From Escherichia coli (GTDB lineage Bacteria > Pseudomonadota > Gammaproteobacteria > Enterobacterales > Enterobacteriaceae): 64,000 nucleotides of DNA. Shown piece after piece: positions 4,903 to 50,028 of the stretch. The stretch lies in NCBI RefSeq assembly GCF_009931435.1, contig NZ_CP043414.1; one strand, given 5' to 3'. A program made the position numbers and the translations under genes. A model generated the notes under the pieces. It searched no databases. It was not told the DNA's origin and saw only the letters and a list, made by a program, of their open reading frames with translations. Every line of letters begins with the position of its first letter. The first letter of the stretch is position 1.

Positions 4903-6006
4903 ATGGACCGCATTATTCAATCACCGGGTAAATACATCCAGGGCGCAGATGTCATTAATCGTCTGGGCGAGTACCTGAAGCCGCTGGCAGAACGCTGGTT
5001 AGTGGTGGGTGACAAATTTGTTTTAGGTTTTGCTCAATCCACTGTCGAGAAAAGCTTTAAAGATGCTGGACTGGTAGTAGAAATTGCGCCGTTTGGCGGT
5101 GAATGTTCGCAAAATGAGATCGACCGTCTGCGTGGCATCGCGGAGACTGCGCAGTGTGGCGCAATTCTCGGTATCGGTGGCGGAAAAACCCTCGATACTG
5201 CCAAAGCACTGGCACATTTCATGGGTGTTCCGGTAGCGATCGCACCGACTATTGCCTCTACCGACGCGCCGTGCAGCGCGCTGTCTGTTATCTACACCGA
5301 TGATGGTGAGTTTGACCGCTATTTGCTGTTGCCAAATAACCCGAATATGGTCATTGTCGACACCAAAATCGTCGCGGGCGCACCTGCACGTCTGTTAGCG
5401 GCGGGTATCGGCGATGCGCTGGCGACCTGGTTTGAAGCGCGTGCTTGCTCTCGTAGCGGTGCGACCACAATGGCGGGCGGTGAGTGTACTCAGGCAGCGC
5501 TGGCGCTGGCTGAACTGTGCTACAACACGCTGCTGGAAGAAGGCGAAAAAGCGATGCTTGCCGCCGAACAGCATGTAGTAACTCCAGCACTGGAACGCGT
5601 GATTGAAGCGAACACCTATTTGAGCGGCGTTGGCTTTGAAAGCGGTGGGCTGGCGGCGGCGCACGCGGTGCATAACGGCCTGACTGCAATCCCTGATGCC
5701 CATCACTATTATCACGGTGAAAAAGTGGCATTCGGTACGCTGACCCAGCTGGTTCTGGAAAATGCGCCGGTGGAAGAAATCGAAACCGTAGCTGCACTTA
5801 GCCATGCGGTAGGTTTGCCAATAACGCTCGCTCAACTGGATATTAAAGAAGATGTCCCGGCGAAAATGCGAATTGTGGCAGAAGCGGCATGTGCAGAAGG
5901 TGAAACCATCCACAACATGCCTGGCGGCGCGACGCCAGATCAGGTTTACGCCGCACTGCTGGTAGCTGACCAATACGGGCAGCGTTTCCTGCAAGAGTGG
6001 GAATAA
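4903..6006 (+). CDS. gldA: Glycerol dehydrogenase
   Basis: Internal start [17 protein letters not shown]... at 4903 preceded by AAGGAG; 367 aa; iron-type alcohol dehydrogenase fold. Confidence 0.92.
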
Positions 6007-6014
6007 CCTATGCC

Positions 6015-6039
6015 AAACTCCCGGCTTGTCCGGGAGTTT
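6015..6039 (+). terminator. Hairpin downstream of gldA (AAACTCCCGG-CTTGT-CCGGGAGTTT)
   Basis: Perfect stem seen directly 3' of the gldA stop; weak U-tract. Confidence 0.45.
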
Positions 6040-6052
6040 GAACGCAAAACTG

Positions 6053-6150
6053 CCTGATGCGCTACGCTTATCAGGCCTACGCAATCTCTGCAATATATTG
6101 AATTTTCGTGCTTTTGTAGGCCAGATAAGGCGTTCACGCCGCATCCGGCA
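6053..6150. repeat. REP/BIME palindromic units
   Basis: GCCTGATGCGCTACGCTTATCAGGCCTAC and GTAGGCCAGATAAGGCGTTCACGCCGCATCCGGCA match the E. coli REP consensus. Confidence 0.75.
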
Positions 6151-6279
6151 CTCTGTGCCAGTAATCTGAAACTCCCACGTTGTTCGGGAGTTTTTTATCC
6201 GCTTCTGGACATTTTCTCCACAGAACAATCGTTAGCCCTGAAGGTCGAATCTGTGAATATTTTTTCACGGACGAAACAG

Positions 6280-6897
6280 ATGAAAGCTTCACTGGCGTTG
6301 TTCAGTCTTCTGACGGTATTTACCAGTTACTCCTTAAAATCTCCCGCTGTTCCACCAACCGTGGTACAAATCCAGGCCAACACCAATCTTGCCATCGCAG
6401 ACGGTGCCAGACAGCAAATTGGCAGCACGCTATTTTACGATCCGGCGTATGTGCAGCTTACTTATCCTGGCGGTGATGTCCCACAAGAACGCGGTGTATG
6501 TTCCGATGTGGTGATCCGTGCTCTGCGCAGCCAGAAGGTCGATTTGCAGAAACTGGTTCACGAAGATATGGCGAAGAATTTTGCCGATTATCCGCAAAAG
6601 TGGCAGTTAAAGCGCCCGGACAGCAACATCGATCACCGTCGGGTGCCTAATCTGGAAACCTGGTTTACCCGCCACGATAAAACGCGCCCCACCAGCAAAA
6701 ACGCCAGTGACTACCAAGCGGGCGATATTGTCTCCTGGCGATTAGATAATGGGCTGGCACATATTGGGGTGGTTTCAGATGGCTTCGCCCGCGACGGTAC
6801 GCCGCTGGTGATACATAACATTGGCGCAGGCGCGCAGGAAGAAGACGTGCTGTTTAGTTGGCAGATGGTGGGGCACTATCGGTATTTTGCTAAATGA
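6280..6897 (+). CDS. yijF: DUF1287-family secreted protein
   Basis: ORF-track 214 aa; start placed at internal MKASLALFSLL signal peptide, giving K-12 length 205 aa. Confidence 0.8.
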   Translation: MKASLALFSLLTVFTSYSLKSPAVPPTVVQIQANTNLAIADGARQQIGSTLFYDPAYVQLTYPGGDVPQERGVCSDVVIRALRSQKVDLQKLVHEDMAKNFADYPQKWQLKRPDSNIDHRRVPNLETWFTRHDKTRPTSKNASDYQAGDIVSWRLDNGLAHIGVVSDGFARDGTPLVIHNIGAGAQEEDVLFSWQMVGHYRYFAK

Positions 6898-7827: not shown

Positions 7828-7920
7828 GAGAGATCCAGTGTGTAGTTTTCCTGTGGACACTATACGCCGGTAAAGAAACTTCAGCGACTGCCTGAAAGAC
7901 AGTCGCTGAAGAAGGTCAGA

Positions 7921-49709: not shown

Positions 49710-49874
49710 CGCCCGACTCTCTTATGTTGTGTTGTGATGAGCAAAGCGTGCCAGAAGGTTAACCAAACATTAAAGAATAAAAAAAGATTGGCTATAACTT
49801 GCGGGTATATGTTGGGGGATTAAAAAGGCGGAAGAAATCCGCCTTAGATTGCTGACAAAGTGCGCTTTGTCCAT

Positions 49875-49972
49875 GCCATATGCGGCGCGAACGCCTTATA
49901 CGGCCTACAAAAGTTTGCAAATTCAATAAATTGCAGAATTCATGTAGGCCTGATAAGCGAAGCGCATCAGGC
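49875..49972. repeat. REP/BIME palindromic units
   Basis: GCCATATGCGGCGCGAACGCCTTATACGGCCTAC and GTAGGCCTGATAAGCGAAGCGCATCAGGC. Confidence 0.75.
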
Positions 49973-50028
49973 ATTTTTGCTTCTGTCATCGGTTTCAGGC
50001 TAAAGGAATCTGCCTTTTTCCGAAATCA

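Follow-up and report, generated by a model that had tools for sequence, protein, structure and literature searches.

The insert found downstream of gldA in the DNA analysed here belongs to BIME-1, a class of repeats also named RIP, RIB or 'RU-3'. BIME-1 is defined by a Y REP, an L linker with an IHF site, and a Z1 REP (PMC3333891). RU-3, the BIME-1 core, was listed with a '?' for its target-site duplication (TSD) and was called probably immobile by Delihas (PMC2229807). The current model assigns the mobility of REPs and BIMEs to RAYT, an IS200/IS605-like Y1 HUH transposase that acts on REP doublets. In transposition of the IS200/IS605 (RAYT) type, neither terminal inverted repeats nor a target duplication is involved (PMC3333891, PMC2817692). 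According to PMC2229807, the YPAL (RU-2) elements of Yersinia are non-coding sequences of ~168 nt that are co-transcribed with the upstream gene, and the same source, citing De Gregorio 2006, gives their target duplications as 3-26 bp, spanning or adjoining dyad symmetries. For BIMEs, no mention of target duplication was found in the accessible literature, the older BIME papers lying outside that coverage.

The locus described here is placed in a stretch of Escherichia coli DNA of 64,000 nucleotides (the window), in which a BIME-1 unit separates two similar hairpins, H1 and H2, in the spacer between gldA and yijF. Probably, the gldA terminator was long ago the target site of a BIME-1 insertion, and H1 and H2 are the copies produced by its duplication.

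The gldA-yijF spacer and its insert

The gene order in this part of the window is ptsA-fsaB-gldA(+)-yijF(+)-yijE(-)-katG(-). The features considered are the following, including two that serve for comparison elsewhere in the window:

4903..6006, + strand: gldA coding sequence, from the open reading frame list and from the RefSeq annotation of the 100%-identical strain R32_14_1F and of other strains
6004-6006: gldA stop codon TAA, 8 nt upstream of H1
6015..6039, + strand: H1, upstream copy of the putative terminator palindrome, AAACTCCCGGCTTGTCCGGGAGTTT, whose 3' end abuts the insert
6040..6168, - strand: BIME-1 unit, 129 nt in the window, lying in the orientation 'end B ... end A' on the + strand
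6040..6051, + strand: remnant of terminus B, GAACGCAAAACT
6052..6080, + strand: Y-type REP (palindromic unit)
6081..6115: L-type linker, 35 nt, A+T-rich, with a candidate IHF-like site at 6091-6103
6116..6149, - strand: Z-type REP, inverted relative to the Y REP
6150..6168, - strand: degenerate terminus A, which reads CAGATTACTGGCACAGAGT on the - strand against the consensus CAGATTGCTGACAAAGTGCGC and abuts H2
6169..6198, + strand: H2, downstream copy of the palindrome (AAACTCCCACGTTGTTCGGGAGTTT at 6169-6193) together with the putative original T-tract
6280..6897, + strand: coding sequence of yijF (DUF1287), the downstream neighbour of gldA
7879..7911, - strand: hairpin of katG used as comparator, CTTCAGCGACTGCCTGAAAGACAGTCGCTGAAG, single and just downstream of the katG stop
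49845..49997, + strand: second BIME-1 unit of the window, in the pfkA-sbp spacer, full length, 153 nt

The first-pass annotation of this DNA had described near-identical direct stem-loop repeats around a REP pair, and this was borne out at 6015-6039 and 6169-6198, since a repeat search recovered H1 and H2 as a 25-nt direct repeat with 21/25 identical positions (84%) and a spacing of 154 nt. H1 is an inverted repeat with 11-bp arms (the flanking C-G pair included) and a 5-nt loop, and H2 is one with 8-bp arms and a 9-nt loop; as RNA, H1 is predicted to fold with -19.2 kcal/mol and the window allele of H2 with -11.5 kcal/mol. The same annotation was also right in assigning a U-tract to the second copy only. 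The core of H2 (6169-6193) is followed by TTTTTTAT, and with the TTTAT after 6193 a run of six T is formed at 6191-6196, followed by AT, whereas H1 has no such run and continues into GAACGCAAAA.

Within the 64 kb, the pattern AAACTCCC-N9-GGGAGTTT, with up to 2 mismatches, was matched by the H1 and H2 sites only, and it was found 0 times in 100 dinucleotide-preserving shuffles. A simple terminator scan called neither hairpin, because H1 has no T run and because the 9-nt loop of H2 exceeds the limit of 8 set in the scan. No promoter-like site for yijF was detected by a promoter scan between H2 and the start codon, and an Rfam search of the locus returned sub-threshold matches only, to REP-derived families (naRNA4, ES036), and no curated RNA. 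The idea that H1 is a dispersed repeat was discarded, as BLAST of H1 with its flanks found one place per genome, in a search whose sensitivity was low (H2 itself was missed).

The arms of the Y and Z REPs are 93% complementary. At 6091-6103, the linker reads ATTCAATATATTG on the - strand, with one mismatch to the IHF consensus WATCAANNNNTTR, and an identical IHF-like motif is found at 49921-49933, in the linker of the second BIME-1 unit of the window. This consensus is loose, with 83 matches in the window against 55 expected, so that the match alone is weak and is read at the sequence level only. A REP pair had been named as the inserted entity by the first-pass annotation; the pair is real, but what was inserted is a longer unit with inverted termini and not a bare REP pair.

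This unit is 129 nt long in the window, 141 nt at the Escherichia locus L012, and 153 nt in the consensus obtained elsewhere, which was defined by scanning metagenome contigs for AGATTGYTGACAAMGTGCGC and then by a profile search. The layout of the 153-nt unit is (T)CAGATTGYTGACAAAGTGCGC..TTCA - Z REP - linker - Y REP - TTTTGCGTTTGTCATCAGTCTCA, and its termini are imperfect inverted repeats (TCAGATTGCTGACAAAG... / ...GTCATCAGTCTCA). An nhmmer model of the 153-nt units recovered the L012 orthologue end to end. In L012 and in E. whittamii, the insert starts with GAGACTGATGACAAGCGCAAAA directly after H1 and ends with ...CCAGTAATCTGA directly before H2; the flanks in L012, where the termini are intact, read ...CGGGAGTTT|CAGATTACTG...ATCAGTCTCA|AACTCCCG.... 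Part of terminus B, 11 nt, is present in E. whittamii and L012 and absent from E. coli and E. albertii, and the termini of the gldA copy in the window are degenerate or shortened. BIME-1 matches were found at between a median of 21 and at least 40 places per E. coli genome, and every copy examined was intergenic.

The termini TGAGACTGATGACAAAC and TCAGATTGCTGACAAAG are common to BIME-1 units, to a boxC-like element described below and to YPAL. We know of no cognate transposase or autonomous parent with these termini. The terminal signature shared by the BIME-1 unit, the boxC-like element and the Yersinia YPAL/RU-2 can be written as T[C/G]AG[A/G]yTGnTGACAAAs, the YPAL/RU-2 sequence used in this comparison being taken from PMC2759123.

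The gldA locus in E. coli and in other species

In a sample of 5426 complete E. coli genomes, the BIME arrangement was present in 4588 (matches covering at least 80% of a 551-nt query). A different insert of ~190 nt, boxC-like and with no REP at the site, was found in 631 of the 5426; palindromes of the forms CCCTCTCCCC/GGGGAGAGGG and CCCTCACCC/GGGTGAGGG abound in it, and its family is small and dispersed. In strain WW2, the one representative of the 631 whose sequence was read, this insert lies between the same two hairpins and has the same boundaries as BIME-1. One strain carries the boxC-like insert with an internal deletion, and in another one IS621 is placed inside the Y REP. By BLAST, H1 with its flanks was recovered from 5422 of the 5426 genomes (93-100% identity) and H2 with its flanks from 5423. 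No BIME-less E. coli strain with a single hairpin at gldA was seen, as expected of an insertion older than the species.

The presence of a different element between the same hairpins in 631 genomes requires, under an origin by BIME-1 insertion, a secondary replacement. As judged from the sequences, the state of these genomes is such a replacement of the BIME-1 core by the related boxC-like element, and the shared termini would offer a route for a precise swap of the core, by recombination between related elements. H2 of WW2 is identical to the decayed H2 allele of K-12, which places this swap later than the duplication. The comparison between strains that had been suggested at the outset would take the duplication as unrelated to REP insertion if strains without REPs here carried both hairpins. 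Taken literally, this is what was found, yet the result is uninformative on the origin of the duplication, because in these strains the BIME-1 core was secondarily replaced by a related element with like termini.

H2 is polymorphic within the species. In 2390 genomes (~44%) it corresponds to the K-12 allele (...CAGGAAT), in which the stem is lost and the predicted stability is -3.2 kcal/mol; in strain 8D, one that was read, the stem is compensated (CCT/AGG), and in the window allele it is intact. On this comparison of alleles, H1 is conserved and H2 is decaying in many E. coli lineages.

Other species were scanned with one genome for each species possessing GldA, which gave 80 loci. Among these, yijF follows gldA in four Escherichia loci (L008, L009, L011 and L012) and in two of Pseudocitrobacter. 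The arrangement H1-BIME-H2 was found in E. albertii, E. whittamii, Escherichia sp. E1V33 and L012, that is, in 4/4 of the syntenic Escherichia species loci. Since both hairpins occur in these four loci and in 5422-5423 of the 5426 E. coli genomes, the insertion probably predates the radiation of Escherichia.

In a further locus, L010, the contig ends inside a tandem array of units, before any yijF could appear. Its H1 is followed by units in opposite orientation, which gave rise to the idea of an inversion between the hairpins; this could not be confirmed, the contig ending where it does and the corresponding junction being found in no E. coli genome.

A single hairpin of the same family, immediately followed by a T-tract, lies after gldA in Citrobacter sp. 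MGH106, C. amalonaticus, Phytobacter, Kosakonia and Pluralibacter species, of which GACTCCCGGCTCACGCCGGGAGTCTTTTTG and CACTCCCGGCAATGTCCGGGAGTGTTTCTTTAT are examples. As these outgroup genera have one copy, the single hairpin is taken as ancestral and the two hairpins as derived. The stem-loop of H1 joined to the tail of H2 gives CTCCCGGCTTGTCCGGGAGTTTTTTAT, a close match to the terminator of Citrobacter sp. R56, CTCCCGGCATTGTCCGGGCGTTTTTTTAT, as reconstructed by removing a MITE and one TSD copy from it. The event at gldA is thus reconstructed from other genera, because the search for an empty gldA site among Escherichia genomes gave none, and the right flank is not strictly orthologous in the comparison, because the single-hairpin outgroup genera lack yijF.

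The MITE just mentioned, an element of ~120 nt with terminal inverted repeats, interrupts the loop of the orthologous terminator after gldA in Citrobacter sp. R56, Awk 4 and NCU1, which makes the gldA terminator a recurrent landing site. It produced a 10-bp duplication, GGCATTGTCC, of a short and typical fixed length, and splits the hairpin. In the Escherichia event, in contrast, the whole palindrome was duplicated and the length varies with the target; the two elements are unrelated.

The two hairpins also differ among lineages. Between Escherichia lineages, the stem of H1 shows a compensatory change (CCGG/CCGG versus CCGC/GCGG), which suggests selection on the structure of H1 as far as sequences can tell. 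In L012, H1 (GCGTCAGC) and H2 (GCGTTAGC) are closer to each other than to their E. coli orthologues, a resemblance that indicates gene conversion or parallel change and would blur the history of the two copies.

Other BIME-1 loci and the origin of the duplication

The same footprint was found at other BIME-1 loci. At 6 of 14 independent loci, the direct repeats flanking the unit scored above all, or above 99.5%, of 182 mismatched pairs of flanks, and in all 6 the repeat is a hairpin, one copy of which stops at terminus A and the next of which begins at terminus B. The other 8 of the 14 have no long flanking repeat, or at most ~3 nt, and hairpin duplication is therefore not obligatory. The architecture of hairpin, unit, and hairpin with T-tract was seen at five BIME-1 loci other than gldA, four of which have orthologous empty sites with a single hairpin:

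yijE-katG: empty in the window (7879-7911), in E1V33 and in E. albertii (these two being L009 and L011); filled in E. whittamii; filled in 0/5426 E. coli
yqjF-yqjG: empty in K-12 (AACGAGGAGGAAGCTCCTCGTTTTTGC); filled in 77/5426 genomes
rlmC-artJ: empty in ST131; filled in 3191/5426 genomes
uidC-ydgA: empty in AR434; filled in 1751/5426 genomes

In E. whittamii, the BIME-1 of the yijE-katG spacer is flanked by two copies of the katG hairpin, for which the window itself, at 7879-7911, provides the empty site. At all four loci, the filled allele exceeds the empty one by the unit (153 nt at three of them and 150 at uidC-ydgA) plus one hairpin copy of 17-29 nt. At the hairpin-flanked loci, the T-tract is retained only by the copy next to it and is missing from the other one, and two adjacent hairpins without an insert were seen at none of the loci compared.

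Two further loci add to this picture. In the pfkA-sbp spacer, terminus A of the unit lies against a hairpin at 49822-49844, of which the far side of the unit has no more than a weak second copy; this unit is nearly fixed (5311/5426 genomes), and no empty allele was present among the 30 matches listed. At L178, downstream of acnB, a different terminator occupies that position in E. coli, and this locus therefore has no part in the comparison with empty sites.

In yqjF-yqjG, rlmC-artJ and uidC-ydgA, the three loci polymorphic in E. coli, at least one sequenced variant has, on the side of terminus A, a hairpin copy whose loop is still that of the empty site, and the copy on the side of terminus B has several loop changes with identical arms. 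In these recent insertions, the loop differences between copies exceed the prediction of a simple fill-in. An inversion of the loop was considered as their source and rejected, the two loops not being reverse complements.

The comparison of filled and empty alleles shows, at the level of sequence, that the duplicated segment is the whole palindrome and that its length follows the palindrome and not a fixed stagger. It likewise shows the element joined at the feet of the stem, the repeats ending and starting at the unit termini within an uncertainty that comes from A/T runs shared by hairpin and terminus. On this basis, the history of the gldA locus may be reconstructed as follows. Before the insertion, gldA would have ended in one intrinsic terminator, approximately AAACTCCCGGCTTGTCCGGGAGTTTTTTAT. 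In an Escherichia ancestor, a non-coding mobile BIME-1 of ~150 nt, made of a Y REP, an IHF-type linker and a Z REP between imperfect inverted termini (TGAGACTGATGACAAAC... / ...CTTTGTCAGCAATCTGA), would have integrated at the foot of this palindrome. We infer that the element was joined at the two feet of the extruded palindrome (a hairpin or a cruciform), one on each strand, and that fill-in of the gaps after joining would copy the palindrome on both sides. In this way the whole stem-loop (~25 bp) would have been duplicated, with the upstream copy, H1, losing the T-tract and the downstream copy, H2, keeping it; later on, H1 would have been conserved, H2 would have decayed in many E. coli lineages, and the core would have been swapped for the boxC-like element in 631 genomes.

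Joining at the feet of the palindrome followed by fill-in would explain why the length of the duplication tracks the size of the palindrome (17-29 bp). Integration of a CRISPR spacer also duplicates a palindromic repeat, and the proposed joining and fill-in may be compared with it as a formal analogy, with no homology claimed. Of the two origins offered by the first-pass annotation, a terminator duplicated at the insertion of the BIME is the one favoured by the single-hairpin outgroups, by the coincidence of the repeat edges with the insert termini and by the other loci. A REP insertion that split and regenerated the terminator does not agree with the locus, where each copy is a whole stem-loop with no interruption.

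The alternatives differ in what they take as the first event. A tandem duplication of the terminator might have come first, for example by slippage at the palindrome, with BIME-1 and later the boxC-like element landing between the copies as in a hot spot; this would account for two different elements filling exactly the same interval in different E. coli lineages, and for both hairpins being present in essentially all E. coli (5422-5423/5426), whatever lies between them. It is nevertheless improbable, as four other loci have one hairpin when empty and two when filled, no insert-free allele with two hairpins was seen at any locus, and the decayed K-12 allele carried by WW2 places the arrival of the boxC-like element after the duplication, which leaves that element with no bearing on the origin. 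The order of the two elements could also be reversed, the boxC-like element of ~190 nt being the original duplicating insert and BIME-1 its later replacement. Termini of the same kind and the same boundaries agree with this order; however, BIME-1 is found in E. albertii, E. whittamii, E1V33, L012 and 4588/5426 E. coli, and the boxC-like element was seen within E. coli only, which leaves this order very unlikely.

The remaining two explanations dispense with an insertion as the cause of the duplication. If the end of gldA had undergone recombination or horizontal replacement, H1 and H2 could be a resident and an imported terminator of different origin. The sequence TAATCTGA just before H2 does resemble TAAAATCTGA, found just after the gldA stop in some Citrobacter, and the region is unusually divergent in the window from other E. 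coli (identity of at most 95.7%). But AATCTGA is the BIME-1 unit's own terminus and recurs at unrelated loci, for which reason we also rejected the idea that the end of gldA left a fragment in front of H2; there is no further gldA homology upstream of H2, and the identical architecture at other loci with empty sites would be left unexplained, so that we attribute hardly any probability to such a scar. The similarity could also be produced, with no insertion origin, by selection and gene conversion acting on two hairpins of separate function, for example one that stabilises gldA mRNA and one that terminates it, a view that draws on the near identity of H1 and H2 in L012, where both are unlike the E. 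coli copies, and on the compensatory change in the stem of H1 between lineages (CCGG...CCGG versus CCGC...GCGG). Conversion, however, needs prior homologous copies, and the outgroups have one; moreover, H2 is visibly decaying in E. coli and not maintained, and this explanation seems to us highly improbable. Duplication of the terminator palindrome by the insertion of BIME-1 is the reading retained in what follows.

Predicted consequences for gldA transcripts and relation to known elements

As modelled, H1 is not a canonical terminator in form, because it has no U-tract, and the window allele of H2, with its stem and U6, has the predicted form of an intrinsic terminator. Transcripts of gldA would be expected to read through H1 and BIME-1 and to stop, if at all, at an H2 with an intact stem, in which case H1 and the REP hairpins would become structures of the gldA 3' UTR. 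In strains without the H2 stem, the 3' ends might be formed by the REP hairpins or by Rho, or transcription might read through into yijF. A search for mapped 3' ends of gldA gave none, and in the supplementary tables of a published 3'-end mapping study, neither gldA nor yijF is present.

At this locus, a terminator would thus have been copied, its U-tract moved 154 nt downstream and BIME-1 placed in a 3' UTR, and the erosion of H2 in many strains raises the question of how gldA transcription ends. Regeneration of the hairpin and U-tract downstream of the insert may be what makes such insertions tolerated. The loci that are polymorphic in the species (filled in 77, 1751 and 3191 of 5426 genomes) form natural pairs in which effects on mRNA ends and stability could be followed. 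The duplication of palindrome length, with matched empty sites, is a mechanistic clue to the spread of BIME-1 and speaks against the chemistry of RAYT, the enzyme usually invoked, which makes no duplication.

The gldA locus itself is of an ordinary, already-explained kind, the footprint left by a mobile repeat together with the repeat. More widely, a YPAL-like BIME-1 that duplicates terminator palindromes and is polymorphic within the species makes a modestly novel lead, with no counterpart found in the accessible literature. A bolder reading would hold that BIME-1 are YPAL-type miniature transposons of 153 nt, mobile in E. coli and not REP doublets moved by RAYT, that they duplicate a whole terminator palindrome at its foot so that termination is rebuilt downstream, and that neither this mode of insertion nor the relationship among BIME-1, the boxC-like element and YPAL through shared termini had been described before; taken as a whole, we put it forward tentatively, as possible and still rather unlikely.

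Compared with the elements already described, the core of the insert in the window (6052-6149) has the composition of BIME-1, and it is likewise extragenic, with dozens of matches per genome. In the accessible descriptions, however, BIME-1 is a REP doublet of ~100 nt whose target duplication is given as unknown or absent, and the repeated unit seen here measures 153 nt, has inverted termini, is polymorphic between E. coli strains and often has a duplicated hairpin at its flanks. With the REPIN/RAYT system it shares a REP doublet that forms a long hairpin, a non-autonomous nature and vertical persistence, but the REPs on either side of the RAYT gene of E. coli are of types Y and Z2 (BIME-2) and not Z1. 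Where a REPIN moved by RAYT is expected to have neither a duplication nor inverted termini, the present loci have duplications of hairpin length and inverted termini, which makes them a poor fit to IS200/IS605-type (RAYT) chemistry.

The kinship of BIME-1 with YPAL, which we infer because their ends are similar over ~17 nt and because both duplicate their targets in like manner, was not found stated in the accessible literature, the primary YPAL study lying outside that coverage. YPAL and the BIME-1 unit are alike in being non-coding, in their terminal signature and in duplications of variable length at dyad symmetries; they are unlike in their interior, which in YPAL is unrelated and has neither REPs nor an IHF linker.

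Hairpin arms and loops at the BIME-1 flanks

The duplicated hairpin copies flanking BIME-1 units presented identical arms and different loops (L090, L160, L095, L114, L193 and L008), and the loops of the paired copies compared were not reverse complements. At polymorphic BIME-1 insertions, which are possibly recent, the copy beside the CAGATTG terminus retained the loop of the empty site, the orthologous locus with a single hairpin, and the copy away from this terminus showed several loop changes. In an Escherichia lineage (L012, 3614-3798), H1 (AACTCCCGCGTCAGCGGGAGTT) and H2 (AAACTCCCGCGTTAGCGGGAGTTTTTTAT), the copies on either side of the unit downstream of gldA, were both perfect hairpins. 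Since they were near-identical to each other, yet unlike H1 and H2 of E. coli, their sequences suggest gene conversion between the two copies.

A second unit was found in the window, near fixation in E. coli (5311 of 5426 complete genomes):

49845-49997, full-length BIME-1 unit of 153 nt, in the pfkA-sbp spacer (within 49822-50020)

It is adjoined by the hairpin located 3′ of pfkA, AAAAAGGCGGAAGAAATCCGCCT, and its other flank, CTAAAGGAATCTGCCTTTTT, looks by its sequence like a decayed, shortened hairpin copy.

In Escherichia sp. MOD1-EC7003 (L010, 3613-4324), H1 ran directly into a tandem array of at least four BIME-1 units, all oppositely oriented, and the contig stops within the array. This arrangement could have resulted from inversion between the palindromic hairpins together with amplification, or it could reflect an assembly break; the junction between H1 and a reversed unit was absent from all E. 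coli genomes searched.

Variation of the gldA-yijF region in E. coli

The window segment 5850-6400 was matched with 100% identity in only one of the 5426 genomes (strain R32_14_1F, from a goat), and identity to the remaining ones was at most 95.7%, whereas the pfkA-sbp region of the window shared 97-99% identity with typical strains. The divergence is thus local to the gldA-yijF region. In 631 of the 5426 genomes, a boxC-like palindromic element of roughly 190 nt, with termini similar to those of BIME-1 units and of the Yersinia element YPAL, replaced the BIME-1 core between H1 and H2.

Elements found in this spacer in other strains:

L002 488-675 (strain WW2; window equivalent 6040-6168), boxC-like element between the same hairpin pair
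L003 about 200-1500 (window equivalent about 6078), IS621 insertion, junction after ...ATCAGGCCT

The boxC-like element carried an internal deletion in strain 28Eco12 (L006), and K-12 has a copy of it in the gcvP-ygfF interval (L007). The IS621 copy, of the IS110 family, interrupts the Y REP of the gldA-yijF BIME in E. coli O111:H11 strain 8D; REPs are known as the target of IS621.

Elements at the gldA terminator in other genera

Immediately past gldA stop (L062, L070), CCCTCTCCCC/GGGGAGAGGG palindromic repeats
About 20-170 nt past gldA stop (L013, L017, L018), Citrobacter element, inverted termini TGACACCGTT...AACGGTGTCA

In Kluyvera and related bacteria, at least one copy of the palindromic family lies between gldA and its terminator, and thus the same repeat family has also settled at the corresponding position in a different genus. 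In Citrobacter spp., an element of about 120 nt, accompanied by a 10-bp duplication (GGCATTGTCC), lies inside the loop of the orthologous terminator. This is a second, independent insertion into the gldA terminator, and the element differs from the BIME-1 insert found there in Escherichia.
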